A stretch of 64,000 nucleotides of DNA. Origin: Candidatus Omnitrophota bacterium. Lineage in GTDB: Bacteria; Omnitrophota; Gorgyraeia; 2-01-FULL-45-10. The notes beneath the pieces were generated by a model. The model had not been told where the DNA came from. It made no database searches and was given only the letters and a program-made list of their open reading frames with translations. The stretch lies in the NCBI GenBank assembly GCA_030695905.1, contig JAUYOL010000004.1, positions 2,874 to 66,873 of the forward strand. The letters run 5' to 3'. The position numbers and the translations under genes are program-made. Positions 31,647-48,929 of this stretch are shown one piece after another. Each line of letters starts with the position of its first letter. Within the stretch, counting starts at the first letter, position 1.

Positions 31647-32092
31647 CCTGTCTGGTTTTGATAGCGTCGCTGGTTATCATAATTGACAGACTTGCCAAGT
31701 TTCTGGTATTCAACAATATGCTCGAAGGGCAGTCCGTAGAAATCTTGCCCAAGATTTTTCACATCACACTGGTGTTGAATACCGGTGCAGCCTTTGGATT
31801 ATTCAAAGACAAAAACCAATTCTTCATAGTCATGTCTTTCATCGTTGTCGCGCTTATATTTGCGTACGTATGGCTCGGCAAGCGCAAGGACCTCGTCAGC
31901 TTAAGCGCGCTGGGCCTTATTCTTGGCGGAGCGGCCGGCAACGTGATAGACCGCCTTATATTTGGCCATATTATAGATTTCCTGGATTTTCGCGTATGGC
32001 CCGTATTCAATGTGGCCGATTCATCAATAACTATTGGCGCTGTATTACTGGTTTTGAGGTTATTCTCCGGTAAAAAATGCTGTACTCAATAG
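31643..32092 (+). CDS. lspA: Lipoprotein signal peptidase II
   Basis: Has the conserved NTGAAFGLF and FNVADSSITIGAVLL motifs and 4 TM segments. Confidence 0.9.
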   Translation: MTCLVLIASLVIIIDRLAKFLVFNNMLEGQSVEILPKIFHITLVLNTGAAFGLFKDKNQFFIVMSFIVVALIFAYVWLGKRKDLVSLSALGLILGGAAGNVIDRLIFGHIIDFLDFRVWPVFNVADSSITIGAVLLVLRLFSGKKCCTQ

Positions 32093-33309
32093 GATTTTTT
32101 ATATTTTCACTGCTTTATCTGCCTACCCTTATCTTTAAGGGCAAGCTTCACGCGGATTTTGGCGAGAGGTTTGCCATATTTGATAAGATGAAGGAGAGGG
32201 CTCTGCTTTCCGGCAGGGACCGCATATGGATACAGGCGGTTAGTGTAGGCGAAGTCGCGCTTTGTAAGAGCTTTATACCGGTTTTGAAAGAAAAATTCCC
32301 GGATCGGGATATAGTCATTTCGACTATAACCAAGGCAGGGAATGACCTGGCCCGAAAAATTTTCGGCAAAGATGTTGTAATCATATATTTTCCTCTCGAT
32401 TTTAAGGCTATAGTTAGAAAAACGATAAGCCTGATTAAACCCGCTTTATATATAATGATAGAGACTGAGATATGGCCCAATCTTTTGGCGGAGCTTTCTT
32501 CGCGCGCTATATCTTCAGCGCTTATTAACGGCAGGATATCCGATCGTTCCATAGGAAAATACAGGTTCGCAAAGCCATTTTTGAAGAAGACCCTGGAAAG
32601 TATAAATATATTTTGTATGCAGGATAGCATAGATGCCGAGAGAATAATAGAATTGGGCGCGCCGAAGGAGAGGGTAAGGATAACGGGCAATATGAAATTC
32701 GATATAGAGCTTCCGGCAAATGTAAAAGATATCGAGGCGGTACGCGACCTGTTTGGGCTCAAAGCTGGCGAAGAGCTATTCGTAGCAGGGAGTACGCGCG
32801 AGGGCGAAGAAGAGATTGTTCTCGATGTATTTAATAGGCTTTTGGCCGATTTCCCGAATTTAAGGCTGCTCATAGCCCCAAGGCATATTGATAGGGCAGT
32901 CCAGATCGATAAGTTAATACAGACCCTGACCCCAGATTCTAAATCCCGGATTATATTGCTCGACACGATAGGCCATCTTAATGAGGCGTACTCTGTCGCA
33001 ACTATTGTTTTTGTAGGCGGCAGTCTTATAAAACACGGGGGGCATAATCCTATAGAGCCGGCATATTTTGCCAAGCCGATACTCTTCGGGCTTAATATGT
33101 TTAATTTTAAATATATCGCAGCCGTTTTTTTAAGGAACAAGGCCGCGCTGCAGGTTTTTAACGGTGAAGACCTTTACGAAAAATGTAAACTTCTTTTACG
33201 TGATGCCGCAGCAAGGGGCCTTTTGGGTAAAAATGCGAAGAAGACGATCGTTGAAAATGCCGGCGCGACGGGGAAAAATGTTATCGAAATCGCGGGAGTC
33301 TTGAAATGA
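32077..33309 (+). CDS. waaA: 3-deoxy-D-manno-octulosonic acid (Kdo) transferase
   Basis: N-terminal RIWIQAVSVGEV matches the Kdo transferase signature. It has a GT-B C-terminal domain and lies adjacent to lpxK. Confidence 0.88.
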   Translation: MLYSIGFFIFSLLYLPTLIFKGKLHADFGERFAIFDKMKERALLSGRDRIWIQAVSVGEVALCKSFIPVLKEKFPDRDIVISTITKAGNDLARKIFGKDVVIIYFPLDFKAIVRKTISLIKPALYIMIETEIWPNLLAELSSRAISSALINGRISDRSIGKYRFAKPFLKKTLESINIFCMQDSIDAERIIELGAPKERVRITGNMKFDIELPANVKDIEAVRDLFGLKAGEELFVAGSTREGEEEIVLDVFNRLLADFPNLRLLIAPRHIDRAVQIDKLIQTLTPDSKSRIILLDTIGHLNEAYSVATIVFVGGSLIKHGGHNPIEPAYFAKPILFGLNMFNFKYIAAVFLRNKAALQVFNGEDLYEKCKLLLRDAAARGLLGKNAKKTIVENAGATGKNVIEIAGVLK

Positions 33310-34343
33310 GGGACTTCATATATTCGTTAATGACCGATAAGAAGAATGGTTTTTTCTACGACATCTTTAAATTTAAGCTCTATCTGGTTTCGCTTATATA
33401 TGGTTTCGCTATAGCGGTCAGAAGAGTCTTTTATAAATTCGGCATATTTAAGATGCGTAAGGCGCCCCTTAAGGTTATAAGCGTCGGGAACATAACTTTA
33501 GGCGGTACGGGTAAGACGCCTTTCGTGGTGACACTGGGCCACATTTTAGAGTCGGAGCTTAAGAAGAACGCGTGTGTGCTTATACGCGGTTATGGCTGGG
33601 ACGAGCAGGCGATGCTGAAGAATAAACTCACCGATATACCGGTTCTTGTAGGCGAAGACAGGGCGCGCTCGGCTTTGAAAGCGGTTAAGCTTTATGGTTC
33701 AAATACAGCGATACTTGACGATGGATTTCAGCATTGGGAGCTTGGCCGGGATCTTGATATAGTGCTTGTCGATTCAAGGAATCCTTTCGGTAATTTGCAA
33801 TTATTTCCCAGGGGAGTATTAAGAGAGCCCAAAAAGGCTTTGCAGAGGGCTGACATTATAGTTTTTACGAAAACTGACGGAAAGAATATCAATTTGGAAA
33901 ATTTAAAGGCCGAGGCAGGCAATATAAACAGAACCGCTGTTTTTTTGGAAGCTGTTCATAAGCCGACTTATTTATATGAGAACAAAACTAGGATCACGCG
34001 CGATCTTTCTTATGTAAAGGGCAAGCGCGTTATCTTATTCTCAAGCATAGGCGATCCGTCGCATTTTGAAGAGACCGTCAGGGCCATGGGCGCGGAAGTG
34101 GTCGAGCACATAAAATTTACGGATCACCATAACTACAAGAAGAGCGACATAGAGCATATTTTAAAAAGATGCAGCGAAAGAAGTTTTGACTTCGTGCTTA
34201 CGACAGAAAAGGATATCGTGAAATTAAACAGGCTCGGGCTGTATATTGGATCCTATACAGTCATGGTTGTAGTGATAAACCTTGAAATAACGCTGGGGAA
34301 GGAGATCTTGATTGATAGACTCAATCGCCTCTATACTCGTTAG
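33306..34343 (+). CDS. lpxK: Tetraacyldisaccharide 4'-kinase
   Basis: VISVGNITLGGTGKTP is the LpxK P-loop. The gene overlaps waaA by 4 nt. Confidence 0.9.
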   Translation: MRDFIYSLMTDKKNGFFYDIFKFKLYLVSLIYGFAIAVRRVFYKFGIFKMRKAPLKVISVGNITLGGTGKTPFVVTLGHILESELKKNACVLIRGYGWDEQAMLKNKLTDIPVLVGEDRARSALKAVKLYGSNTAILDDGFQHWELGRDLDIVLVDSRNPFGNLQLFPRGVLREPKKALQRADIIVFTKTDGKNINLENLKAEAGNINRTAVFLEAVHKPTYLYENKTRITRDLSYVKGKRVILFSSIGDPSHFEETVRAMGAEVVEHIKFTDHHNYKKSDIEHILKRCSERSFDFVLTTEKDIVKLNRLGLYIGSYTVMVVVINLEITLGKEILIDRLNRLYTR

Positions 34344-36255
34344 AGGGCTGAATATCATATTTCATTTTATTCCAATAGAGTTCAACCTTTGGATAGGCAG
34401 GCGTATAGGTTCCGCTGCCTTCTTTATTAATAAGAAAAGGCGCATGATAGCCTACGCCAATCTTAAGGCAGCGTTCGCGAACGAGAAGCCCCCGAAAGAG
34501 TTGCGTGCGATCACTAAAAGAGTTTATATAAACCTCGTCCAAAGCTTTGCCGAGATCTTAAGCCTTACCAAGGTAAGTAAATCCTATGTGAATAAATATG
34601 TTGAAGTTGTAAATATGAACCGTATAGAGGACGCCGGGAAATCAGGCAGGGGCACCATACTTCTCACGGCTCACTACGGCGACTGGGAACTGTCGAGCCT
34701 GGTAAGCGCTATGAAGGGTTTTCCTATAACGGTCCTTGCCCGCGAGCAGAAGATGAAACGGCTTAATGAACTTTTAAACCGCCTCAGAGAGTCGAAGGGA
34801 TGTAAGGTTGTAAGGAAGGGGATGTCCACAAAGCTTATCTTCAAAGAACTTTATAAGAAGGATATGGTAGGGATATTGTCGGATCAGGATGCCGGCAAGA
34901 ACGGTACTTTTGTAAACTTTTTTGGCAGGCCAACATCGGCGCATGTCGGGCCTTTTGAAATAGCCAAGCATACGGATTCTATAATATTACCCAATTTTAT
35001 CGTAAGGACGGCCGGTCCATTTCATAAATTATACCTGGAAGATTACATAGATATGAGGGATGCCAAAACTCAGGAAGATGTGAAGGATAGTCTGCAGAAA
35101 TATATGTCTTTGCTGGAAAAGTACATCAGGCAGTATCCTGATCAGTGGTTATGGCTTCACAAGAGGTGGAAATCCACCCCAAAAAGGACCATCCTTGTTT
35201 TAAATGACGGCAAGGCGGGCCATCTGAACCAATCGCTTGCGGTAGCGCGCGAGATACAGAGGGCGAGGATGACCCAGGGATACAAAATAGAGGATACTTC
35301 AATAGTTACGGTGAGTGTTGAGTATAAAAACAAATTATTAAGACTTCTATTGGCATGTATTGTGCCCTTTGCAAGTTGGCGCTGTCAGGGCCGCATGTAT
35401 TGCTTGAGGATGTGCCTGAAGAAAGATTCTTACGAAAATTTAATGAAGACATACGCGGAATTTATAGTCTCCTGCGGTTCGAGCTTAGCTCCCGTGAATG
35501 TATTTATGAAAAAGGAAAACAACGCCAGGAATGTTGTAATTATGAAGCCGTGCCTTTTATTCGGTTTAAGAAAGTTTAATTTTATAATCGCGCCCAAACA
35601 TGACAGAATATGTGAACGTAAAAATGTTGTTATTACGACTTTAGCGCCCAATCTGGTGGACAGCCAGGCGCTGAAAGCCGCGGGAGAGAAATTGTCGGCC
35701 GGTGTGCGACTTGAAGGCAACAAGGTTATGGGGCTTCTGATAGGCGGCGATAATCCGGAGTTCAGGCTTTCGGGAGATTTATTAAAAAAAGTCATAAACG
35801 ATGTGCTCAAAGTTTGCGAATCGAATAACGCGGATCTGCTGGTAACGACTTCCAGGCGCACAAATAAAGAGCAGGAGTCGATTATAAAATCTATGTTACA
35901 GGGTAACTCCAGATGTAAACTGCTTGTAATAGCGAATGAGAGCAATCCAGAAGAGACGCTGACAGGCATACTGGCCTTAAGTAACGTCGCTATCGTTTCG
36001 GGCGAATCAATATCAATGATTTCCGAGGCGGTGAGTTCAGGTAAAAAGACAGTAGCTTTTGGCCTTAAGAAGAAGAAAAATTCTATTACAAAACACGAAC
36101 GTGTTCTCGAAAATCTGGCAAGAGATGGGTACATATCAATAGCCAGGGCCGGAGAGATGATATCGCTGGCCTCAAGAGCGCTAAAAGACACGTCGCCCGC
36201 GAAAAAGGTCGGAGATACGGACAAAATTTACGAAGCCATGAGGGCGCTCATATAA
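34312..36255 (+). CDS. Two-domain protein: N-terminal LpxL/HtrB-family lipid A acyltransferase fused to a C-terminal ELM1/GtrOC1-like putative glycosyltransferase domain (647 aa)
   Basis: Residues 1-290 have the lysophospholipid-acyltransferase HX4D-type motif (LTAHYGDWEL) and the LpxL fold. Residues 300-647 resemble the ELM1/DUF1022 family (KAGHLNQSLAVA ... LLIGGDNPEF ... VIANESNPEE). The C-terminal domain assignment is recalled and unverified. Confidence 0.65.
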   Translation: MIDSIASILVRGLNIIFHFIPIEFNLWIGRRIGSAAFFINKKRRMIAYANLKAAFANEKPPKELRAITKRVYINLVQSFAEILSLTKVSKSYVNKYVEVVNMNRIEDAGKSGRGTILLTAHYGDWELSSLVSAMKGFPITVLAREQKMKRLNELLNRLRESKGCKVVRKGMSTKLIFKELYKKDMVGILSDQDAGKNGTFVNFFGRPTSAHVGPFEIAKHTDSIILPNFIVRTAGPFHKLYLEDYIDMRDAKTQEDVKDSLQKYMSLLEKYIRQYPDQWLWLHKRWKSTPKRTILVLNDGKAGHLNQSLAVAREIQRARMTQGYKIEDTSIVTVSVEYKNKLLRLLLACIVPFASWRCQGRMYCLRMCLKKDSYENLMKTYAEFIVSCGSSLAPVNVFMKKENNARNVVIMKPCLLFGLRKFNFIIAPKHDRICERKNVVITTLAPNLVDSQALKAAGEKLSAGVRLEGNKVMGLLIGGDNPEFRLSGDLLKKVINDVLKVCESNNADLLVTTSRRTNKEQESIIKSMLQGNSRCKLLVIANESNPEETLTGILALSNVAIVSGESISMISEAVSSGKKTVAFGLKKKKNSITKHERVLENLARDGYISIARAGEMISLASRALKDTSPAKKVGDTDKIYEAMRALI

Positions 36256-36803: not shown

Positions 36804-38906
36804 ATGAACATATTACAGATATTACCATCACTGGAAGTTGGCGGGGTCGAGACCGGGACGATTGATCTGGCGAGGTACCTTGTAAAGAAATGCCACAAGG
36901 TGATCGTCATTTCGGGAGGCGGCCGGCTTGTAAGAGAGCTCGATAAGATGGGCGCGCGCCACTATACGTTACCGGTAGGGAAGAAGTCTATTTTTAATAT
37001 GATACGCATGGTTCGCGCGGTGGCCGATATCATAAAAAATGAAGATATCGATATCGTACATGTGCGCTCGCGCGTGCCGGCGCTTATAGCGTTTATAGCT
37101 TCCAGAATGACCAATCGTGTATTTATGACTACCGCTCATGGTTACTACAAAAAAAGTTTTATGAGTAGCGTAATGGGTTGGGGCAGATTCGTGATAGTGC
37201 CATCCAATATAATAGCTAAGCATATGGTAAGCGATTTTGGCGTGCCCCATGATCGCATACGTTTTATTCCCCGCGGCGTGGATCTGACAAGATTCAAATT
37301 CAGGAATCCTAAGACGCATTCCTCAAAGGGTTTTACCGTGGGGATGATATCAAGAATAACGCCTTTAAAAGGCCATGCCTATTTTATAAAAGCGATATCT
37401 CTTTTATATCGAAAGATCCCCAATCTTAAAGTTGTAATAGTAGGCAGCGCCCCAAAAGAAAAATACAAAGAGGACCTGGATCTGTTAGTAAGAAGGCTCG
37501 GCCTTGCAAATATTGTGCAGTTTGTGGGCGCCAAAGAAGATATCCCATCTGTAATGAAAGACCTGGATTGTCTTGTATCCGCTACAATCACCCCGGAAGC
37601 GTTCGGCAGGTCCATTGTGGAGGCACAGGCGTCCGGTGTACCGGTGGTTTCGACCAGAGTGGGCGGCGTTGTCGATATCATAGAGGATAATAAAACGGGC
37701 CTATTCTGTGACGCGCAGGACCCGCGCGATATGGCCGATAAGATATCGAGGCTTTACCAGGACAGAGCCTTATGGGAAGAGTTTGTGATCCAGGGCAGAA
37801 AGCGCGTGGAGGATAATTTTAATCTCGATCTTATGATGACCAAGACTATTAGCGTATATGAAGAAGCCTTGAAAAGTTTAAATATTCTGGTGATAAAATT
37901 AAGCGCGATAGGCGATGTTATATTAAGCACGCCTTCGCTTCGTTCAATACGCGCAAAACACAAGGACTCTGTGATAAAGGTTCTCGTTGGGCTCCAGGCC
38001 AAAGAAGTGTTGGATAGATGCCCGTATATAAATGACAGGATAATATGTGACTTTAAGGGCAAGAATAAAGGCTTTATTGGGCTATGGAGGTTGTCAGAGG
38101 AATTAAGGAAGGGCTGTTTTGATATAGTAATAGATCTGCAGAATAATAAAAAGAGCCACATACTTTCATTTTTGTCTATGGCGCCGCTTCGCTACGGTTA
38201 CGACAACGGAAAATTTTCTTTTCTATTGAACAAGAGGATAAAGGATGACGCGCCGTATCTGGATCCTATAGACCATCAGTTCAGGGTATTAAAGCTCGCG
38301 GGTATAAAACCTCTGGATAAACATCTGGAGATATGGCCTTCGCCTTCCGACGATGAAAAGGTAAGCGGTTTGCTCAATGAGAGCTGGATCAAATCAACGC
38401 AAAATATAGTAGGTATAAACGTGAGAGCCTCTTCGCGCTGGCTTTCTAAGAATTGGCCGGCTAAGTATATAGCCGAACTTTGTGACAGGCTCGCGAAAGA
38501 ATTCAACGTGCGCACAGTGCTTACAGGGACTAAGGATGATATCCCTTTCATAGAAAGGATAAGCCAGAACACTTCCTCGAAACCTATAGTGGCCGCAGGT
38601 AAGACAGGCATGCTTGAATTGGCGAGCCTTATAAAAAGATGCCGGGCTTATATAACGCCCGATTCCGCGCCTATGCACATCGCCTCGGCCGTAGGCACCC
38701 CATTTATAGGCTTGTTCGGCCCTACGGATCCGGCAAGGCATATAGCGCCATCAAAAAAATACGTAGTAATGAAGAAGGATCTAAAGTGCAGCCCATGCTA
38801 TAACCCGAACTGTTTGAAAAAAGTTAAATGCATGAAAGAGATAACGGTCGACGAGGTTTTTAAAGCTACCAAGGATATCTTAACCCAGAATGGCGCCGGA
38901 CAATGA
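36804..38906 (+). CDS. Bifunctional glycosyltransferase: N-terminal GT4 (GT-B, EX7E motif) fused to a C-terminal GT9 heptosyltransferase-like domain (700 aa)
   Basis: The N-terminal half has EAFGRSIVEAQASGVPVVSTRVGGVVDIIE, a GT4 EX7E region. The C-terminal half has ILVIKLSAIGDVILSTP and DSAPMHIASAVGTPFIGLFGPTDP, the GT9/WaaC-WaaF-WaaQ signatures. Confidence 0.8.
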   Translation: MNILQILPSLEVGGVETGTIDLARYLVKKCHKVIVISGGGRLVRELDKMGARHYTLPVGKKSIFNMIRMVRAVADIIKNEDIDIVHVRSRVPALIAFIASRMTNRVFMTTAHGYYKKSFMSSVMGWGRFVIVPSNIIAKHMVSDFGVPHDRIRFIPRGVDLTRFKFRNPKTHSSKGFTVGMISRITPLKGHAYFIKAISLLYRKIPNLKVVIVGSAPKEKYKEDLDLLVRRLGLANIVQFVGAKEDIPSVMKDLDCLVSATITPEAFGRSIVEAQASGVPVVSTRVGGVVDIIEDNKTGLFCDAQDPRDMADKISRLYQDRALWEEFVIQGRKRVEDNFNLDLMMTKTISVYEEALKSLNILVIKLSAIGDVILSTPSLRSIRAKHKDSVIKVLVGLQAKEVLDRCPYINDRIICDFKGKNKGFIGLWRLSEELRKGCFDIVIDLQNNKKSHILSFLSMAPLRYGYDNGKFSFLLNKRIKDDAPYLDPIDHQFRVLKLAGIKPLDKHLEIWPSPSDDEKVSGLLNESWIKSTQNIVGINVRASSRWLSKNWPAKYIAELCDRLAKEFNVRTVLTGTKDDIPFIERISQNTSSKPIVAAGKTGMLELASLIKRCRAYITPDSAPMHIASAVGTPFIGLFGPTDPARHIAPSKKYVVMKKDLKCSPCYNPNCLKKVKCMKEITVDEVFKATKDILTQNGAGQ

Positions 38907-40012: not shown

Positions 40013-40793
40013 GAAGCGCATATTATTAGTTGCCGCTACTACAATAGCAGTCCTGTTAATTGCCTCGATAGGTTATGTTGATGTAAAATCTTCCTCGGTC
40101 GTTCCGATATTAATGTACCATTCTTTTGAGGTTGAGGATCCCGGAACCACGCCCAATGTTACGCCCGAAATATTCCGTAAGCAGATAGAGTTTTTTGTTA
40201 AACATAAATATAATATAGTAGGTCTGGACAAGGTTGTAGTTTATATGACAAAAAAAGAAAAGATGCCTTCAAGGGCAGTCGCTATAACAGTTGATGACGG
40301 CTTGCGCAGTTTTTATAAAAATGCTTATCCTATATTAAAAGAGTACGGTGTGCATGCCGCGCTCTTTATGGCTGCGGATCGCGTAGGAGAGCCGGGTTAT
40401 ATGAGCTGGAAAGAGTTGCGCGAAGTCTCCGATTCAGGCTTAGTTATGGTTGAAAGCCACACGGCGTCGCATCCATGGCTTCCGACTATTTCTGTTGATG
40501 AAAAAAAACTGCATGAAGAAATTATAGGCTCTAAGGAGATTTTTGAGTACGGGCTACGAAAAAAAGTGGACTATATATGTTATCCTAACGGCGGATTCAA
40601 TGACCTGGTAAAGGAGACGGCAAGATTGGCAGGGTACGAGGGTGCCTTTACAACCAATCCGGATAAGAAAAGCGCGATCAATGATATATACGCGATAAGA
40701 CGGCTTAAGATGTCATCGTCGTCCAGGACCCCTCTGGTGATTTGGGGCAAGGTAAACAGATTTTATGCTTGGTGGAAGGAGACCAGATGGTAG
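39999..40793 (+). CDS. Polysaccharide deacetylase (CE4 / NodB homology domain) with N-terminal TM anchor
   Basis: Has the NodB motifs TVDDG, a catalytic His/Asp pattern (ESHTASHP) and YPNGGFN. An N-terminal TM is present. Confidence 0.75.
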   Translation: MANSKKRILLVAATTIAVLLIASIGYVDVKSSSVVPILMYHSFEVEDPGTTPNVTPEIFRKQIEFFVKHKYNIVGLDKVVVYMTKKEKMPSRAVAITVDDGLRSFYKNAYPILKEYGVHAALFMAADRVGEPGYMSWKELREVSDSGLVMVESHTASHPWLPTISVDEKKLHEEIIGSKEIFEYGLRKKVDYICYPNGGFNDLVKETARLAGYEGAFTTNPDKKSAINDIYAIRRLKMSSSSRTPLVIWGKVNRFYAWWKETRW

Positions 40794-41812
40794 GCGGTAG
40801 TAAAAAAATACTTATAGTAAACGTGAACTGGATAGGGGACGTAATATTTTCGACTCCGTTTATAAAGACCATCCGCGACGCCTATCCGGATAGCTATATA
40901 GCCTGCCTTTTACATCCGCGCTGTATCGATGTGTTGAAAGACAACCCGCGTATCGACGAGATAATAATCTACGATGAAGAAGGCGCGCACAAAGGCCTTA
41001 TCGGTAAATTAAAATTAATAGCTTACTTAAGAAAGAAGAGATTTGATATAGCGTTTATACTGCACAGGTCATTTACAAAAGCGCTTATAACGTTTTTAGC
41101 TGCGGTTAAAGAGCGGGTAGGATATCCTACCAAGAAGCGCGGCATGTTTTTAACTAAACTTGTGGAGATTTCGGATGAAGAGATCCACAAGGTAGAGTAT
41201 TTTCTTAATTTAGCCAGAGCATACGGGATAGCGGTAGGCGATGTCGCGTATGAATTTTTCGTAAAACAGTCAGACCGGCAAAAGATAAAGCAGTTTTTAA
41301 ATGAAAATGGTATAGGCGATAAAGATCTTCTAATAGTGCTTTGCCCGGGCGGTAACTGGAATCCTAAAAGGTGGCCAAGGGAAAATTTCGCGCAATTAGC
41401 CGATATATTTATAGAAAGACTTAACGCGAAGGTGGTAATATCCGGAGCGAAAAAGGATATCGCGCTGGCAGAAGATATAGGAAGATCAATGAAGAATAGG
41501 CCGGTCATTTCCTGCGGCAAAACAGATTTAAAAGGGCTGGGAGCTTTGATGGAGCGCGCAAACCTGGTAGTGGCAAATGATACGGGTCCTATGCACATTG
41601 CCGTAGCGATGAAAAGTAATGTTATAGCGTTATTCGGGCCGACATCCGCTGGGCTTACGGGCCCTTACGGGAAGGGCAGTTATAACGTAATCTCGAAAAA
41701 CGAAGAATGCGACGTCCCTTGTTATGATATGACATGCACAGATAACCGTTGTATGGCGCTTATAAAACCGGAAGACGTGTTTAAGGAAGCCCTAAAATTA
41801 ATTAAACCATGA
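40787..41812 (+). CDS. GT9 ADP-heptose:LPS heptosyltransferase family protein (paralog 1; start at ATG 40787 after GGAAGGAG)
   Basis: Has ILIVNVNWIGDVIFSTP and NDTGPMHIAVAMKSNVIALFGPT motifs. Confidence 0.85.
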   Translation: MVGGSKKILIVNVNWIGDVIFSTPFIKTIRDAYPDSYIACLLHPRCIDVLKDNPRIDEIIIYDEEGAHKGLIGKLKLIAYLRKKRFDIAFILHRSFTKALITFLAAVKERVGYPTKKRGMFLTKLVEISDEEIHKVEYFLNLARAYGIAVGDVAYEFFVKQSDRQKIKQFLNENGIGDKDLLIVLCPGGNWNPKRWPRENFAQLADIFIERLNAKVVISGAKKDIALAEDIGRSMKNRPVISCGKTDLKGLGALMERANLVVANDTGPMHIAVAMKSNVIALFGPTSAGLTGPYGKGSYNVISKNEECDVPCYDMTCTDNRCMALIKPEDVFKEALKLIKP

Positions 41813-42786
41813 AAATAGATAAAGATCAGATAAAGCGAATACTCGTTATAACTTTGAGCAACATAGGCGATATTATTCTTACCACGCCTGTTATAAGGAC
41901 GCTTTCAAAAGAGTTTCCATCTTCAAGAATAGATGTGATGGTAGGGCCAAATGGCAGAGATATTTTTAATAAGGATCCGCGGATCTTTAAGCTGGTCATA
42001 TATGATAAGCATATATCTATAGTCGAAAAGAGAAGGCTGCAGTTAAAATTAAAGAGGTTAAAATATGATCTCGTAGTCGATCTAAAGAATACGGCCTTTC
42101 CTATTTTGCTGATGCCAAAGTATAGAACCAGCTCTATGCAGACATTTCCCAAAAGCATTATCCATAAAAAAGAAAAACACCTGTATAGGCTTCACCCGCT
42201 TGGGATGCAGAATATCAAGGAAGATTCATATATTTACATTCCGCAAGAGGATGAAAGATATGTGCAGAACCTGCTGGCGGAGTGTAATATATCCGATCCT
42301 ATAGTTGTTATCAATCCGGGCGCTAAGAGCCACCTTAAAAGATGGACGGCCGAGGGATTTGCCAGTGTCGCGGATAGGCTGGCCAGCGAAAGCAGTGCGA
42401 GCATTGTCTTCATAGGCATGGGAGAAGACGGCGGGGTTGTTAGCGAAGTAACTAGAAGGATGAAGGGCAAATTTTATAACTTTACGAACAAGACCAATAT
42501 AAGGCAGTTGGCGGCATTATTGAAAAGAGCGAAATTGCTGATAACAAACGATAGTGCGCCATTACATCTGGGTTGCACTATGGGAACAAGGGTATTGGCC
42601 ATATTCGGCCCAACCGATCCTAAAAAATACGGCCCAACGGGAGAGCTTGACGCGGTTATCAATAAAAAGTTGTTTTGTTCCCCCTGCGAAAGTGCTGTAT
42701 GTAAGTATAATCACGAATGTATGAAACTGATTTCGCCGGACGAGGTCTATGACTTTGCAAAGATGATGGTGGAAGGATATGAGTAA
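41809..42786 (+). CDS. GT9 heptosyltransferase family protein (paralog 2)
   Basis: Has ILVITLSNIGDIILTTP and NDSAPLHLGCTMGTRVLAIFGPTDP motifs. It overlaps the upstream gene as ATGA. Confidence 0.85.
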   Translation: MKIDKDQIKRILVITLSNIGDIILTTPVIRTLSKEFPSSRIDVMVGPNGRDIFNKDPRIFKLVIYDKHISIVEKRRLQLKLKRLKYDLVVDLKNTAFPILLMPKYRTSSMQTFPKSIIHKKEKHLYRLHPLGMQNIKEDSYIYIPQEDERYVQNLLAECNISDPIVVINPGAKSHLKRWTAEGFASVADRLASESSASIVFIGMGEDGGVVSEVTRRMKGKFYNFTNKTNIRQLAALLKRAKLLITNDSAPLHLGCTMGTRVLAIFGPTDPKKYGPTGELDAVINKKLFCSPCESAVCKYNHECMKLISPDEVYDFAKMMVEGYE

Positions 42787-43840
42787 AATCCCAAATCCCA
42801 AATCCCAAATTACAAAGTACAAAAAAATTCTTATTGTCAGGACGGATAAGATAGGGGACCTTGTTCTATCCACACCTGTTATAAAGGCCGTGCGCGACGC
42901 GTATCCGGATAGCTACATAGCGGCGGTCGTCAGGCCTTACGCGCATGAAGTAATTAAGGGCAATCCGTATCTAAACGAGGTTATAACATATGAGAAGTCA
43001 AAAAAAGGCATGAGCATCTTAAGTGACCTCAAATTTATATTAGGGTTAAGAAAAAAGAAATTCGATCTGGCGTTTATACTTCACCCAAAAAACAGGACGC
43101 ACATAATAATGTTTCTGGCCGGAATTCCCAAAAGGATAGGCTACGACAAAAAGCTTGGGATTCTTTTGACGAAGAGGATCCCGCATCTGAAGGAATATGG
43201 GCTGAAACACGAAATAGACTATACGCTCGATATAGTGCGTTATGCGGGTATTGAACCAAAAGAGAAGACCCTGCATGTGACCGCGGATGGGGCCGCAGAA
43301 AAAAAAGTGGACGATATTTTTGCCAAGAGCGGCATATCCAAGGACAATATGGTGATAGCGGTACATCCCGGCGCAAGTTGTCTTTCAAAAAAATGGAAAG
43401 TAGAGCGTTTTGCGAAGGTAGCGGATTCACTCGCCGAAAAGTATAATGCGAAGATTGTTATAATAGCAGGGTCTGTGGACAAAAAACTTGGAGACAGGAC
43501 GGCGGAGCTGATGATTTCCGGCAATGTGAACCTGTCGGGCAAGACCACCGTATCGGATGTCGTAAGCGTGTTAAAGCGTTCGAACCTATTTATATCGAAT
43601 GATTCAGGCCCAGTACATATAGCCTGCGCTGTGGGAACGCCGACAATATCTATATTCGGACGAAATGACAGAGGGCTTTCGCCGCAGCGCTGGAGGCCCA
43701 TAGGCAAGAAAGACATAGCTTTGCATAAGGATGTCGGATGCAAATTATGCCTTGCCCATAACTGCAAGCGCGGCTTCGCGTGCCTGGAAGCTATAAGCGT
43801 AGATGACGTGCTTGCCGCCGCGCAAACAATATTGCGTTGA
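42779..43840 (+). CDS. GT9 heptosyltransferase family protein (paralog 3). A 7-nt x3 tandem repeat sits at its 5' end.
   Basis: Has ILIVRTDKIGDLVLSTP and NDSGPVHIACAVGTPTISIFG motifs. The N-terminal codons KIPNPKSQI are encoded by (AAATCCC)x3. Confidence 0.85.
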   Translation: MSKIPNPKSQITKYKKILIVRTDKIGDLVLSTPVIKAVRDAYPDSYIAAVVRPYAHEVIKGNPYLNEVITYEKSKKGMSILSDLKFILGLRKKKFDLAFILHPKNRTHIIMFLAGIPKRIGYDKKLGILLTKRIPHLKEYGLKHEIDYTLDIVRYAGIEPKEKTLHVTADGAAEKKVDDIFAKSGISKDNMVIAVHPGASCLSKKWKVERFAKVADSLAEKYNAKIVIIAGSVDKKLGDRTAELMISGNVNLSGKTTVSDVVSVLKRSNLFISNDSGPVHIACAVGTPTISIFGRNDRGLSPQRWRPIGKKDIALHKDVGCKLCLAHNCKRGFACLEAISVDDVLAAAQTILR

Positions 43841-43881
43841 CGAGGCTCGACGCCTTGTGATAAGATATTGATTCTTTAAGG

Positions 43882-44826
43882 ATGTATTTAATGCAAAAGA
43901 GAGTAGACCTATCCAAAATAAGGACCATACGCCTTGATACTCGCAAGTGCAAGGTGTCCGTGAAGGACTTTGCGCACCTTGTAAAAAAGGGGTCGAGTTT
44001 TAAAGATTTTTACAATTCATTGCCCGCTATTCTCGCCGCCAATAATTTTAAAACTGTAGTAGACGATATCATTGCCGCCCACAAAAAGAAGAAGATGGTT
44101 ATATTTATGATGGGCGCGCATGTAATAAAGTGCGGCCTGTCGCCGTTGGTCATAGACCTGATGAAGCGTGGTGTTGTAAGAGCAGTCGCGTTAAATGGAG
44201 CCGGCATAATACATGATACCGAGGTCGCTATGATAGGCAGGACGAGCGAAGATGTCGGTGAGGGCATAGTTGACGGCTCGTTCGGCATGGCGGAAGATAC
44301 AGCTTCGTTTATCAACGGCTCGATAAACTATGGGTTTAGAAACGGCGTTGGTATAGGAGAGGCCCTTGGCAGCCGAATATTGAAGTCAAAATTTTCGTGC
44401 AAAGGTTTAAGCATTTTGGCGGAAGGTTACAGATTAGGCATACCGGTAACGGCTCATGTAGCGATAGGAACAGACATAATACACCAGCATCCCAGTGCGG
44501 TAGGGATGGCTATAGGAGAGGGGTCGCTTCTTGACTTCAAAAACTTTATCTACAGCGTTTCAAAGCTTGATGGAGGCGTGGCCGCCAATATCGGTTCGGC
44601 CGTGATTTTACCCGAAGTATTCTTAAAAGCGGTAACAGTCGCCAGAAATTTAGGATACAAGGTAGATAAATTTACGACGGCAAGTTTTGATATGATTAGC
44701 CAGTACAGGGTGCATCAGAATGTCATATCCAGGCCGACATCAAAGGGCGGCAAAGGGTACAGCATTATAGGGCATCATGAAATAATGATTCCGCTGCTTC
44801 ACAGATCGATAATAGAAAAGATATAA
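43882..44826 (+). CDS. Deoxyhypusine synthase-like family protein (314 aa), function unknown in this context
   Basis: [42 protein letters not shown] aligns by eye with eukaryotic DHS [55 protein letters not shown] resembles HNIPVFSPALTDG. The similarity is recalled and unverified. Confidence 0.4.
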   Translation: [314 protein letters not shown]

Positions 44827-44830
44827 AATT

Positions 44831-45838
44831 ATGGAAAAACAGAATTTCAACAAGCTGAAACAGATAGTATCAAATTTTAAGGACGCGAACGTTCTGGTCA
44901 TAGGCGACCTTATTCTTGACGAATTTATATGGGGAGACGTTTCCCGCATATCTCCCGAAGCGCCTGTGCCGGTGGTGTGGGTCAGACGTGAAAGTTTCAT
45001 GCCCGGAGGGGCGTCAAATGTCGCGAATAATTTGAGAAGTTTGGGTGCGCACACCTTCATAGCCGGAGTGATCGGCGATGATGAAAGGGGCGCTATACTC
45101 AAGGGAGAGCTTGAGCAGAAAGGCATCGATACCGGCGGTATAGTCGTGGATGAGTCCAGGCCGACCACTCTAAAGACGCGCGTTGTCGCCCATCACCAGC
45201 AGGTTGTTAGAATAGATAAGGAGAAAAAGGACGCGTTAAGCGACGTGATGATATCGCGTATCATCGATTATACTAAAAAGATAATAGACAGTATAGACGC
45301 GGTTATAATCGAGGACTATGGCAAAGGAGTCATAACTCCTAAGCTGCTGAAGAGTATAGTGCCGTTAGCCAGATCGCGAAAAAAGATAATATCTGTCGAC
45401 CCCAAAGAGGAACATCTGAAATATTATCAGGGGATAAGCCTTATCACTCCGAATAATCATGAGGCGTCCAAGGCCGTTGGCTTTGAAATAAAAGATAACG
45501 CGACATTAAAAAAGGCCGGTGAGGCCATGCTCAAAAAATTCAAATGCAAAATAGCCCTGATAACACTGGGCGAGAATGGTATGGCGGTTTTTCAGAAGGA
45601 TAAACCTATGAAGCATATACCTACGGTGGCGCAGGAAGTATTCGATGTGTCCGGCGCGGGAGATACAGTGATAGCCTCTTATACGCTTGCGCTCGCGTCC
45701 GGAGCGAGTCCTGTGCAGGCGGCGCATATTTCTAACTGCGCGGGCGGCATTGTTGTCGGCAAGGTAGGTATCGCGGTTGTAACGCCGGATGAATTGATAG
45801 ATAGAGTAAGAAAAGAATCCGGAATAATAAATAATTAA
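44831..45838 (+). CDS. hldA: D-glycero-beta-D-manno-heptose-7-phosphate kinase (HldE domain I only; PfkB carbohydrate kinase)
   Basis: Has VLVIGDLILDEFIWGDVSRISPEAPVPVV and DVSGAGDTVIA (PfkB signature 2). There is no C-terminal cytidylyltransferase-like domain II. Confidence 0.85.
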   Translation: MEKQNFNKLKQIVSNFKDANVLVIGDLILDEFIWGDVSRISPEAPVPVVWVRRESFMPGGASNVANNLRSLGAHTFIAGVIGDDERGAILKGELEQKGIDTGGIVVDESRPTTLKTRVVAHHQQVVRIDKEKKDALSDVMISRIIDYTKKIIDSIDAVIIEDYGKGVITPKLLKSIVPLARSRKKIISVDPKEEHLKYYQGISLITPNNHEASKAVGFEIKDNATLKKAGEAMLKKFKCKIALITLGENGMAVFQKDKPMKHIPTVAQEVFDVSGAGDTVIASYTLALASGASPVQAAHISNCAGGIVVGKVGIAVVTPDELIDRVRKESGIINN

Positions 45839-45859: not shown

Positions 45860-46606
45860 GTGAAAGCTATAGGGGTAATACCCGCAAGATGGGGTTCCAC
45901 AAGATTTGAAGGTAAGGTACTGGCGGATCTTCTGGGTAAGCCGGTGATACAGCATGTTTGGGAGAGCGCGAAAAAGGCGAAGACGCTGGACGACCTTGTT
46001 GTTGCGTGTGATGATGAGCGCATAATGAAGGTTGTGCAGGAGTTCGGCGGGAAAGCGGTCTATACGTCCGTCGACCAGCCGTCCGGCACCGACCGGCTCG
46101 CGGAAGTAGTGAACCCTCTGGACGTGAAGATAGCGGTAAATATACAGGGCGATGAGCCGCTTGTTAAGCCCATCATGATAGATAATCTCGTGATGGCTCT
46201 TGAAGATGAGAAGACCGCGCAGATGGCGACTATGGTAAAGAAGATAGAAGACGAAGAAGAGCTTACGAATTCAAATGTGGTAAAGGCTATCTTTGATAAG
46301 AATGGATACGCGATATATTTTTCGCGTTACGCTATACCGTATAATAGGACAAACAGCGTCGATAAAGATAAGAAGCCGGTATATTATAAACATATAGGCA
46401 TGTACGCGTTTACCAAGGACTTTTTATTCACATTCAGAAATCTGCCTAAATCATCTCTCGAAAACGCGGAAAAACTTGAACAGCTGCGCGTGCTGGAGTA
46501 TGGTTACAAGATAAAGATAGTTGAAACGAAGTTCGATACAATCGGTGTTGATACGCATGAAGATCTGTTGAGAGTAAAAGAGATGATGTTGTCTGAAAGA
46601 TACTAA
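45860..46606 (+). CDS. kdsB: 3-deoxy-manno-octulosonate cytidylyltransferase (CMP-Kdo synthetase)
   Basis: IGVIPARWGSTRFEGK is the nucleotidyltransferase motif. The length is as expected for KdsB. Confidence 0.9.
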   Translation: MKAIGVIPARWGSTRFEGKVLADLLGKPVIQHVWESAKKAKTLDDLVVACDDERIMKVVQEFGGKAVYTSVDQPSGTDRLAEVVNPLDVKIAVNIQGDEPLVKPIMIDNLVMALEDEKTAQMATMVKKIEDEEELTNSNVVKAIFDKNGYAIYFSRYAIPYNRTNSVDKDKKPVYYKHIGMYAFTKDFLFTFRNLPKSSLENAEKLEQLRVLEYGYKIKIVETKFDTIGVDTHEDLLRVKEMMLSERY

Positions 46607-46618
46607 AGGTAAAATATA

Positions 46619-47443
46619 ATGCAGTCTACCAAAGAGATAAAGATAGGCAATGTAAAGATAGGGGCGGGTAATCCGCTTGTCCTTATCGCGGGGCCATGTG
46701 TTATAGAATCCGAATCAAGCGCCGTAAGGCACGCGAAGGCGTTAAAAGATGTAACGAGGCGGCTTGGAGTGCCTTTTATATTCAAATCAAGTTACGATAA
46801 AGCGAATAGATCCTCCGTGAATTCATTCAGGGGCCCCGGACTTAAGAAGGGATTGAAGATACTGCATAAGATAAAAGAGGAATTGGCCCTACCCATCCTT
46901 TCCGATGTACACTGCAAGGAAGAGGTTAGGGAAGCTTCAAAGGTGCTGGACGTAATCCAGATACCGGCTTTTCTCTCAAGACAGACGGATCTGATATTGG
47001 CGGCGGCCAATACAGGCAAAGTAGTCAATATAAAGAAGGGGCAGTTCTTAGCGCCCTGGGACATGCGCAATGTAGTTAAGAAGATAGAGTCGAGCGGAAA
47101 CAAAAAGATAATTCTTACCGAAAGGGGAGTAAGCTTCGGTTATAATAATCTTGTAAGTGATTTCAGGTCTGTGCTGATAATGAAAGAGATGGGTTATCCG
47201 GTTGTATACGACGCGACTCACTCTGTCCAGATGCCGGGGGGGTTAGGGGATAAATCCGGCGGTGAAAGCAAATTCATACCATATCTATCGATGGCCGCGG
47301 TTGCCTGCGGTGTCGATGGTATCTTTATAGAGGTACACGAAAATCCTTCAAAGTCATTGAGTGACGGTCCCAATATGGTAAAGCTCTCCGAGCTTGAAAA
47401 AATACTGATGAAGTTAAAGAAGATAGAAAGGGCGGCAAGATAA
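46619..47443 (+). CDS. kdsA: 2-dehydro-3-deoxyphosphooctonate aldolase (Kdo-8-P synthase)
   Basis: Has LIAGPCVIES of the DAHP/KDO8P synthase family. The gene is 274 aa. Confidence 0.9.
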   Translation: MQSTKEIKIGNVKIGAGNPLVLIAGPCVIESESSAVRHAKALKDVTRRLGVPFIFKSSYDKANRSSVNSFRGPGLKKGLKILHKIKEELALPILSDVHCKEEVREASKVLDVIQIPAFLSRQTDLILAAANTGKVVNIKKGQFLAPWDMRNVVKKIESSGNKKIILTERGVSFGYNNLVSDFRSVLIMKEMGYPVVYDATHSVQMPGGLGDKSGGESKFIPYLSMAAVACGVDGIFIEVHENPSKSLSDGPNMVKLSELEKILMKLKKIERAAR

Positions 47444-48402
47444 TGGCTAAAAGAATAGCCAAAAATGTCCTTACGATAGAACGCGACGCTTTATCTGATC
47501 TGATAAAGAGGATAGACTCCGGTTTTGAAAAGGCTGTAAACGCCTTGTATAAAACAAAAGGGCGCGTGATAGTCACGGGAATGGGCAAGCCCGGTTTTAT
47601 CGCGCAGAAGATATCGGCAACACTCTCTTCTACCGGCACACCTTCGCTGTATCTGCATCCGGCAGAAGCGTTGCACGGCGACTTAGGTAGAGTGACGAAG
47701 GAAGATATTATACTGGCGCTTTCAAATAGCGGCGAGACGGATGAAATAATCAAATTTTTACCTATTGTGAAGAAGATAGGCGCGAAATTGATCGCTATGG
47801 TCGGAAATACAAAATCCACACTCGCGAAGAACGCGGATTATATTATAAATACCTCGGTAAAGAGAGAGGCGTGTTCGTTAGGACTGGCTCCCACAACATC
47901 GACCACAGCAATGCTCGCCATGGGAGACGCTCTTGCGGTAGCCCTGCTTGATAAAAAAGGTTTTAAGGAGAATGATTTTGCTTTCTTTCACCCGGGAGGG
48001 ATACTGGGCAAGAGGTTATTGTTAAGCGTAGGCGATATCATGAGGAAGGGCAGCGATAACCCTATAGTTAACGAGAATTGCCCTGTCAAAAGAGTTTTGC
48101 TTGCTATAACAAAGGCACGCGCGGGAAGCGCAAGCGTGGTTGATTTTAAGGGTAAGCTGATCGGAATATTTACCGACGGTGACTTAAGAAGGCACATAGA
48201 AGGCCAACCCGATCTTATTAATAAAAAAGTCAGGGACGTCATGACTAAAAATCCGGTAACTATAAGCAAAGACAGGCTGGCGGCGGAAGCCTTTGATATA
48301 CTCCGATCAAAAAAGATAGACGAAATTCCGGTTGTCGATAACAAAAAGCGGCCTGTTGGATTGTTAGATGTGCAGGATCTGCTTAAAGCAGGGCTCGTAT
48401 GA
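47443..48402 (+). CDS. kdsD: Arabinose-5-phosphate isomerase (SIS domain plus tandem CBS)
   Basis: Has the SIS motif (VIVTGMGKPGFIAQKISATLSSTG) and two C-terminal CBS domains. Confidence 0.88.
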   Translation: MAKRIAKNVLTIERDALSDLIKRIDSGFEKAVNALYKTKGRVIVTGMGKPGFIAQKISATLSSTGTPSLYLHPAEALHGDLGRVTKEDIILALSNSGETDEIIKFLPIVKKIGAKLIAMVGNTKSTLAKNADYIINTSVKREACSLGLAPTTSTTAMLAMGDALAVALLDKKGFKENDFAFFHPGGILGKRLLLSVGDIMRKGSDNPIVNENCPVKRVLLAITKARAGSASVVDFKGKLIGIFTDGDLRRHIEGQPDLINKKVRDVMTKNPVTISKDRLAAEAFDILRSKKIDEIPVVDNKKRPVGLLDVQDLLKAGLV

Positions 48403-48929
48403 TAAGTAAAGAGATCGTGGAAAAAGCGAAGCGCGTGAAGATGCTTATCAGCGACATAGACGGTGTTATGACCGACGGCCGTATAGTATACAGCATTTAC
48501 GGCGATGAACTGAAATTTTTTGATGTCACAGACGGTTTCGGTATGTCGCTTTTGAACAGGGCCGGCATAAAGACCGTCATAATGACCGCGAAAAAATCCA
48601 GGATAGTGAAGATGCGCGGCCGCGATTTAAAGGTGGCAAGAGTGTATGCCGGGTTCCTGGATAAGATGATACCTTTTAACGACCTATTAAAAAGATTCAA
48701 GATTAATCCCGAAGAGATATGTTTTATAGGGGATGACCTAATAGACCTTCCGGTATTGAAGAGGGTGGGCTTTGCCGTATCTGTGCCAAACGCTATGGAA
48801 GAGGTAAAAGTAGCCGCGCACTACGTTACCTCAAAATCAGGCGGACGCGGCGCTGTGCGCGAAGTCTGCAATCTTATCTTAAAGAGCCAGGACAAGTGGG
48901 ACCAGGCCACAGCCAAATACTTCAAGTAG
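48399..48929 (+). CDS. kdsC: Kdo-8-phosphate phosphatase (HAD-IIIA)
   Basis: Has LISDIDGVMTDGRIVY (HAD motif I), together with FIGDDLIDLP. Confidence 0.88.
   Translation: MISKEIVEKAKRVKMLISDIDGVMTDGRIVYSIYGDELKFFDVTDGFGMSLLNRAGIKTVIMTAKKSRIVKMRGRDLKVARVYAGFLDKMIPFNDLLKRFKINPEEICFIGDDLIDLPVLKRVGFAVSVPNAMEEVKVAAHYVTSKSGGRGAVREVCNLILKSQDKWDQATAKYFK

Follow-up and report, generated by a model that had tools for sequence, protein, structure and literature searches.

Introduction

The adenosine diphosphate heptose (ADP-heptose) pathway, which builds the inner core of lipopolysaccharide (LPS), yields the innate-immune agonist ADP-heptose and is a target for antibiotic adjuvants, appears in teaching as a closed scheme with four or five enzymes. 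Among these, the epimerase HldD, a short-chain dehydrogenase/reductase (SDR), relies on a bound nicotinamide cofactor for a transient oxidation, and its gene is part of classical operons such as gmhA-hldE-hldD-gmhB of Helicobacter pylori. Transient hydride transfer to bound nicotinamide adenine dinucleotide (NAD), termed hydride-borrowing, is also the mode of action of deoxyhypusine synthase (DHS). In the human enzyme, NAD is bound by residues S105/N106, T131-G133, E137, D238, G282-G284, T308/A309 and D342, and the catalytic Lys329 resides in the loop that joins strands five and six. The C-terminal domains of cyanobacterial ArgZ and AgrE reportedly act on ornithine with NAD, and the cyclodeaminase domain of AgrE is likewise a hydride-borrowing enzyme. 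Here, we describe a gene in a 64,000-nucleotide stretch of DNA from a Candidatus Omnitrophota bacterium (contig JAUYOL010000004.1, positions 2,874 to 66,873 of the forward strand), referred to as the window, which lies within a cluster for LPS synthesis and encodes a protein predicted to share the DHS fold. The protein belongs to the GSU2086 family, for which we find a conserved linkage to heptose biosynthesis and which, as we tentatively propose, may supply a C6 epimerase in place of HldD.

The family is named after a protein of Geobacter sulfurreducens whose gene is part of an operon comprising GSU2084 (gmhB), GSU2085 (hldE), GSU2086 and GSU2087 (gmhA) (PMC5585712). In transposon sequencing (Tn-seq) of electrode growth, hldE, GSU2086 and gmhA obtained scores of –3.1, –3.2 and –3.7, respectively (PMC5585712), and GSU2086 thus shows the same defect as its neighbours gmhA and hldE. 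The metabolic models of G. sulfurreducens and G. metallireducens proceed via the reactions S7PI, GMHEPK and GMHEPAT and go no further than ADP-D,D-heptose, with neither an ADP-L,D-heptose metabolite nor an epimerase reaction in either of them (PMC2640342); evidently, the curators of these models found no HldD. Beyond the Tn-seq table from Geobacter we found nothing on the family in the literature and no paper that gives it a function. It is thus catalogued but uncharacterised, and its link to heptose was previously noted only in the annotation of Geobacter.

Results

A widespread family without assigned function

The gene is contained in an uninterrupted open reading frame (ORF) of 314 residues at positions 43882..44826 of the forward strand, between the gene of a GT9 heptosyltransferase and that of a heptose-7-phosphate kinase, as described in an earlier interpretation made from the letters of the stretch (the sequence-only reading). 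The coding sequence of this GSU2086-family member probably spans 43891..44826 on the same strand and encodes 311 residues, since a Shine-Dalgarno-like AAGGA read from the sequence (43878..43882, forward strand) precedes the ATG at 43891 by 8 nucleotides and lies right against the one at 43882, and since both a 100% identical database copy from a Candidatus Omnitrophota metagenome-assembled genome (P0001) and almost all close homologues of the protein comprise 311 residues. The ATG at 43882, from which the longest ORF is counted, would accordingly not be the real start. The sequence-only reading had noted a short upstream gap with its own ribosome-binding context; the gap is there, measuring 41–50 nucleotides from the end of the GT9 gene (42779..43840) depending on the start codon, and so is the AAGGA, but the latter fits the ATG at 43891 and not that at 43882.

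The protein matches the NCBIfam model NF052581 ('GSU2086 family protein') from end to end, with its residues 8-308 covering positions 2-300 of the 301 of the profile (E=2e-125, 418.1 bits compared to a cut-off of 250), and it differs in no kind from the type member GSU2086 of G. sulfurreducens. NF052581 carries a name only, with no function assigned, no Pfam family and no solved structure, which agrees with the view of the sequence-only reading that such DHS-like bacterial proteins are poorly characterised, and no chain in the PDB matches the window protein in a single-sequence search. Homologues are numerous: in a library clustered at 50% identity, 2594 cluster representatives matched at E≤1e-3, 538 of them also at E≤1e-30, and a pattern scan with one genome per species identified family matches in at least 599 species. 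The spread includes Omnitrophota, Thermodesulfobacteriota, Nitrospirota, Poribacteria, Planctomycetota, Verrucomicrobiota, Acidobacteriota, Bacteroidota, KSB1 and Binatia.

Conserved linkage to heptose biosynthesis

The genomic surroundings of the family were investigated by calling ORFs within ±10 kb of the 80 best loci and searching them with GmhA, GmhB, HldE, HldD, WaaC and WaaF from Escherichia coli and with the LPS proteins of the window. In 54 of the 80 loci, distributed over about ten phyla, a heptose-biosynthesis gene is immediately adjacent to the family gene (designated X in the following gene orders), usually gmhA upstream or hldA downstream. The former is present in 45 loci and in about 42 of them located directly upstream on the same strand, mostly in Thermodesulfobacteriota, Nitrospirota and Binatia, whereas hldA follows directly downstream in 11 loci of Omnitrophota, Planctomycetales and Verrucomicrobiota. 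Genes of the GT9 family were detected in 12 loci. The order GT9-X-hldA-kdsB of the window recurs in other Omnitrophota and in Planctomycetales (L001, L002, L019, L030, L036, L044, L067, L071), another locus (L004) reads X-hldC::gmhB-gmhA-hldA-GT9, and in Nitrospira hldC is found about 2 kb downstream of the family gene. The remaining 26 loci are often truncated or contain genes for GT9 proteins, O-antigen ligase or LptE. Two copies located on plasmids, both above the NF052581 cut-off, are organised as hldC/hldA-X-gmhA (Solidesulfovibrio) and HAD-X-hldA-gmhA (Chloroflexota), and more distant members appear in the orders gmhA-X-BON-hldE and X-hldA. The contigs of P0228 and P0268 have a length of only some 2 kb. 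Homologues are also present on 17 contigs of IMG/VR, one of which carries hldC-X-hldA.

A second line of evidence comes from fusions. When the 150 best cluster representatives were surveyed with E. coli pathway proteins using phmmer, 10 turned out to be fused to heptose-pathway enzymes, namely HldC in five cases (P0127, P0134, P0149, P0167, P0181), GmhA in two (P0160, P0166) and HldE (P0206), HldA (P0171) and GmhB (P0256) in one case each. No fusion to HldD was found among the same 150 representatives. A role in LPS or core-sugar metabolism had been entertained in the sequence-only reading, and the link is conserved in the 54 loci with an adjacent heptose gene and in the fusions, which extend it across phyla. 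We also considered whether X could stand in for GmhA, HldA, GmhB or HldC, and ruled this out because all four of these enzymes of ADP-D,D-heptose synthesis are found alongside X or as its fusion partners. As separate observations on domain architecture, P0181 (826 residues) is a triple fusion of a DUF89/ARMT1 'damage-control phosphatase', HldC and X, whose DUF89 domain may, as the fusion hints, act as a GmhB-like heptose phosphatase, and the X domain is tandemly duplicated in P0122 and P0222.

The classical enzyme that is missing from this company is HldD. In the approximately 1.2 Mb of neighbourhood sequence around the 80 homologues and in the 64-kb window no HldD was found, and the only two SDR proteins encoded near homologues score 73 and 86 bits compared to a TIGR02197 cut-off of 274.6. 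E. coli HldD has no match in the window by phmmer, and the fold of the family is different from that of the SDR HldD.

A DHS-like fold with a conserved ligand edge

In the sequence-only reading, the protein was regarded as DHS-like on the basis of an alignment by eye, which was to be considered spurious if PF01916 gave no significant match. At the level of sequence families, the score is indeed insufficient: Pfam yields only sub-threshold N-terminal matches within residues 53-120, to PF01916 (DS; E=0.007, 16.2 bits compared to a cut-off of 27) and to PF21570 (ArgZ-like_C_2nd; 15.6 bits compared to 27), and the NCBIfam equivalogs of DHS remain far below their cut-offs (NF002630, 16.3 bits compared to 364; TIGR00321, 14.9 bits compared to 304). 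The cut-off of PF21570 is passed by a few members of the family, such as P0122 (32.6 bits) and P0167 (29.4 bits). The structure, on the other hand, shows that the resemblance is not spurious. A model obtained with AlphaFold2 from an alignment of 58 diverse members (A1) is of high quality, with a predicted local distance difference test (pLDDT) value of 96.6 and a predicted template modelling (pTM) score of 0.92, and displays a six-stranded parallel α/β protein for which Foldseek ranks DHS chains first (E 3e-8, template modelling (TM) score ~0.6). The protein is thus no member of the DHS family, but it has the DHS fold in the prediction, where the resemblance is real as fold and remote homology. 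Sequence identity to DHS and to enzymes of the lysine-oxoglutarate reductase/saccharopine dehydrogenase (LOR/SDH) type amounts to 9–16%.

A profile built from the same 58 sequences detects ArgZ, AgrE and a LOR/SDH protein of Methanococcus maripaludis with E-values between 1e-5 and 2e-4 and, more weakly, archaeal DHS (E=0.01), in all cases limited to profile positions 56-119. A motif A-x-HD-x-E-x-A-x-x-G is common to the family, ArgZ, AgrE and 3C2Q, with its HD-E residues corresponding to H111, D112 and E114 of the window protein. As judged from these comparisons, the family is slightly nearer to the LOR/SDH-type C-terminal domain of ArgZ and AgrE than to DHS. When the ArgZ segment of 64 residues was itself used to search for homologues, no more than 13 short fragments were obtained.

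Five residues (E114, T121, D218, S239 and E300) are invariant in A1, and those conserved to at least 90% include H80, K83, H111, D112, H192, D198, H203, E245, K249, D270, Y275, R276, R284 and H299. Together with about 45 nearly invariant positions, many of which are polar, the invariant residues are maintained across phyla at an overall identity of about 40–55%. Nearly all of the residues conserved to at least 90% map to the C-terminal ends of the six parallel strands in the model, which form the ligand edge of the sheet, and it is because of this clustering of conserved, often polar residues that the pattern appears typical of an enzyme active site.

For a comparison with the active site of DHS we used the human sequence, which is identical to the PDB chains. 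An alignment with hhalign is confined to residues 73-113 and DHS 99-139 (41 columns, negligible probability), and a forced global version was meaningless and was discarded. Equivalences outside this segment were assigned by eye from the order of strands and not from a residue-level structural alignment. In this mapping, D198 of a TD motif corresponds to D238 of DHS in 'IPVFSPALTD238' and appears to be kept, as does G238 of 'NIG238SAV', which corresponds to G283 in 'LGG283GVV', and a 12-residue segment would correspond to DHS VYADASLVFPLL at an NAD-contacting loop. Changes are found at E137, which corresponds to H111, and at D342, where the segment equivalent to DHS 'VYAD342ASLVFPLL' contains a histidine (H298). 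Some of the dinucleotide-contacting loops thus appear to be kept, while others seem to have turned to histidine. A catalytic lysine of the DHS type, whose conservation had been of interest in the sequence-only reading, is not among the conserved residues of the loop that by strand order is equivalent to the one holding Lys329 (residues 271-292), where K288 is present in 6 and K291 in 17 of the 58 sequences and where Y275, R276, N280 and R284 are conserved instead.

The LPS cluster of the window and other gene neighbourhoods

The gene is embedded in a string of LPS genes on the forward strand. Its upstream part contains waaA, lpxK and an lpxL-Elm1 fusion (32077..36255), the last of which (34312-36255) encodes a protein of 647 residues with the unusual architecture of an LpxL-like lipid A acyltransferase (PF03279) joined to Mito_fiss_Elm1 (PF06258). 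A GT4-GT9 fusion glycosyltransferase of 700 residues follows (36804..38906), in which GT4 models cover residues 1-356 and TIGR02195 covers residues 360-693; the same GT9-containing ORF of about 700 residues recurs upstream in further loci of Omnitrophota and in one of Planctomycetales (L001, L002, L019, L071). Besides this fusion, which provides a fourth GT9 domain, three consecutive GT9 genes (40742-43840) precede the gene: a WaaF-like heptosyltransferase (40742..41812; TIGR02195, 183 bits; E. coli WaaF, 109 bits), a protein recognised by heptosyltransferase III/II models at E ~1e-39 (41809..42786) and the heptosyltransferase directly upstream of the gene (42779..43840; TIGR02195, 146 bits compared to a cut-off of 134.6). 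In the gap behind the latter, a promoter-like TTGACG-18 nt-TAAGAT with a TG before the –10 element can be discerned on the forward strand (43837..43866). This is weak evidence, as promoter-like motifs show no excess over chance in the region (5 observed compared to 2.4±1.7 expected).

Downstream, a gap of only 4 nucleotides separates the stop codon from hldA (44831..45838), whose product is a kinase-only protein (TIGR02198, E=8e-120, 400 bits compared to a cut-off of 345) that matches E. coli HldE by phmmer with 202 bits in its kinase half alone. The Kdo (3-deoxy-D-manno-oct-2-ulosonic acid) genes kdsB, kdsA, kdsD and kdsC continue the string (45860..48929), and lpxL, lptC/A and lptB are located further downstream. 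With E. coli proteins as phmmer queries, none of gmhA, gmhB, hldC and hldD was found in the window; as it does contain hldA, the other genes of the heptose pathway of this genome must be encoded outside the window.

Several of the other neighbourhoods have features of their own. In Desulfobacterales-type loci (L008, L011, L015, L022, L037, L049, L053) the gmhA-X pair is placed between haem-biosynthesis genes, with porphobilinogen deaminase (hemC) and uroporphyrinogen methyltransferase/synthase (cobA-hemD) recognised downstream by eye from their N-terminal sequences, and the same two haem families appear as PF01379 and PF02602 beside X in other loci. This flanking is recurrent but probably functionally unrelated. 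On plasmid pDCAR1 of Solidesulfovibrio carbinolicus (L084:9435-17941), an HldC-HldA protein of reversed domain order, X, a gmhA-like gene and three radical SAM genes are located inside a glycan cluster with nonulosonic-acid, transketolase and methyltransferase genes. The Chloroflexota plasmid CP069395.1 (L085:1-14144), from a phylum whose members are generally devoid of LPS, carries HAD-X-hldA-like-gmhA-like beside a sugar ABC transporter and near two Gfo/Idh/MocA oxidoreductases, a sugar-phosphate isomerase/epimerase, deoC and a GntR regulator, and looks like a cluster for the utilisation of a sugar, perhaps a heptose. Finally, a distant homologue (L087:8001-13299) immediately precedes the gene of a GHMP kinase and has SLH, SDR and NTP_transferase genes in its vicinity, which together resemble a cluster for a guanosine diphosphate (GDP)-heptose S-layer glycan rather than the ADP-heptose route.

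Discussion

The GSU2086 family very probably belongs to the heptose pathway, of which it would probably constitute an unrecognised fifth step. We picture its members as soluble cytoplasmic enzymes in the synthesis of activated heptose for the LPS inner core, which would supply the fifth pathway activity by inverting C6 from D-glycero- to L-glycero-D-manno-heptose through an oxidation that is only transient and is followed by re-reduction, both with a tightly bound NAD, and which would in this way take the place of HldD, an unrelated epimerase of the SDR type. We assign this role of an NAD-dependent C6 epimerase a probability of roughly 0.35 to 0.4. It is favoured because HldD is the sole classical activity that, in the loci and representatives examined, is never found beside X or fused to it, and because the hydride-borrowing of DHS is the chemistry required for an inversion at C6. 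With respect to the substrate, the tight pairing with gmhA and the clusters that lack hldC or contain a GHMP-kinase and NTP-transferase type of activation suggest a heptose or heptulose 7-phosphate, and a DHS-like layout, with a dinucleotide pocket and a pocket for a small substrate lined with Lys and Arg, would point in the same direction, whereas the frequent fusions to HldC suggest ADP-heptose.

Several observations weigh against an epimerase. The proposed binding of NAD derives from the fold and from the mapping of strands to DHS by eye, and His, Asp, Glu, Lys and Arg are unusually abundant among the conserved residues of the site (H80, K83, H111, H192, H203, K249, R276, R284, H299), which could equally reflect a metal centre or phosphate chemistry. 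The absence of HldD refers to the gene neighbourhoods examined and to the two Geobacter models. An epimerisation of ADP-heptose makes little sense for the homologues in the GDP-heptose-like cluster and in the catabolic-looking Chloroflexota cluster, which lacks HldC. Moreover, copies from IMG/VR with about 37% identity are located beside genes for terminase (gpA) and lambda-type portal proteins, others with 46–50% identity beside SLOG (YAcAr), DHH/DHHA1 or ARPP-1/2 genes, and the phage-like contigs (L090, L091, L094, L097-L101) contain no heptose genes within 8 kb. Because of these homologues the family is not exclusively linked to heptose, and a more general role related to nucleotide sugars or NAD is conceivable.

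The closest competitor to the C6 epimerase is a heptose-pathway enzyme that catalyses a different reaction, which we regard as somewhat unlikely. Such a protein might carry out another redox or epimerisation step on sedoheptulose 7-phosphate or heptose 7-phosphate next to GmhA, or it might use a former NAD pocket to bind the ADP moiety of ADP-heptose for hydrolysis, proofreading or transfer. It would account for a linkage that is strongest to gmhA, whose product acts first, rather than to hldC, for the members in clusters without HldC and in one with a GDP-type activation, for a site whose abundance of charged residues and histidines is atypical of a pure NAD site, and for phage-like homologues that adjoin the nucleotide-processing domains SLOG, DHH and ARPP. 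To our knowledge, however, no extra reaction is required between sedoheptulose 7-phosphate and ADP-heptose, and the phenotype of the Geobacter mutant is one of pathway loss, which fits a required step better than proofreading. The closest structural relatives are, as far as is known, all NAD-dependent hydride-borrowing enzymes, although a fold search identifies folds only. That the protein is instead a non-catalytic regulator or scaffold, which binds NAD or ADP-heptose to control or organise GmhA, HldA and HldC, would be in line with its hub-like fusion or adjacency to each pathway enzyme in turn, but it appears improbable in light of the five invariant residues and the roughly 45 others that hardly vary; many of these are polar, and their concentration at the ligand edge is typical of an active site.

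Explanations that place the family outside of the heptose pathway fare considerably worse. A true deoxyhypusine or homospermidine synthase, or an ornithine cyclodeaminase or other LOR/SDH-type amine enzyme whose position among LPS genes is incidental, would share the fold, the weak N-terminal matches to PF01916 and PF21570 and the HD-E motif common to ArgZ and AgrE. Scores far below all family cut-offs at identities of 9–16%, the lack of a conserved Lys in the loop equivalent to that of Lys329 and a heptose linkage that is kept through many gene orders and fusions make this very unlikely, and for the same reasons we have rejected a true DHS as largely refuted. Most remote of all is the chance insertion of an unrelated gene into the LPS cluster, which had been named as an alternative in the sequence-only reading and could draw on the somewhat larger upstream gap of 41–50 nucleotides with its promoter-like motif. 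This idea is refuted by the census of neighbourhoods, given the order GT9-X-hldA-kdsB in other Omnitrophota and Planctomycetales, the gap of 4 nucleotides to hldA and a linkage that extends across about ten phyla.

If the family should indeed comprise a non-homologous C6 epimerase, which would use bound NAD on a heptose phosphate or on ADP-heptose and which at present is a tentative proposition, it would provide the first enzyme with a DHS or LOR/SDH fold that acts on sugars and extend this fold from amine to sugar-phosphate chemistry. It would also explain how L,D-heptose for the LPS core could be made in many phyla, including Thermodesulfobacteriota, Nitrospirota, Omnitrophota, Planctomycetota, Verrucomicrobiota, Acidobacteriota and others, provided that these lack HldD, as seen in the examined neighbourhoods and the two Geobacter models. 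With thousands of sequence clusters in at least 599 species, the family is widespread and strongly conserved and yet absent from the textbook scheme, and its distribution implies that in much of the bacterial tree the pathway either contains a step that has gone unrecognised or has one of its steps performed by an unrelated enzyme.

In comparison with known systems, the family resembles DHS (PF01916; human PDB 1DHS, 6XXJ) in its fold, in a weak N-terminal sequence match and in equivalences of NAD loops assigned by eye, and it differs in a sequence identity of 9–15%, in scores below the Pfam and NCBIfam thresholds, in the lack of a conserved Lys in the Lys329 loop, in the change of D342 to His and in a genomic context of sugar-nucleotide synthesis instead of eIF5A or polyamines. 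Its best relatives at the level of sequence are the C-terminal LOR/SDH-like domains of ArgZ and AgrE (PDB 6JUY, 6LRF; PF21570) and the M. maripaludis protein 3C2Q (profile E=1.4e-5 to 1.6e-4), of which only about 65 residues align, with the match to ArgZ (E=1.4e-5) covering 64. HldD, in turn, would be a functional analogue of unrelated fold and without homology, and it is the place of hldD in classical operons that X resembles in its own position within heptose operons.

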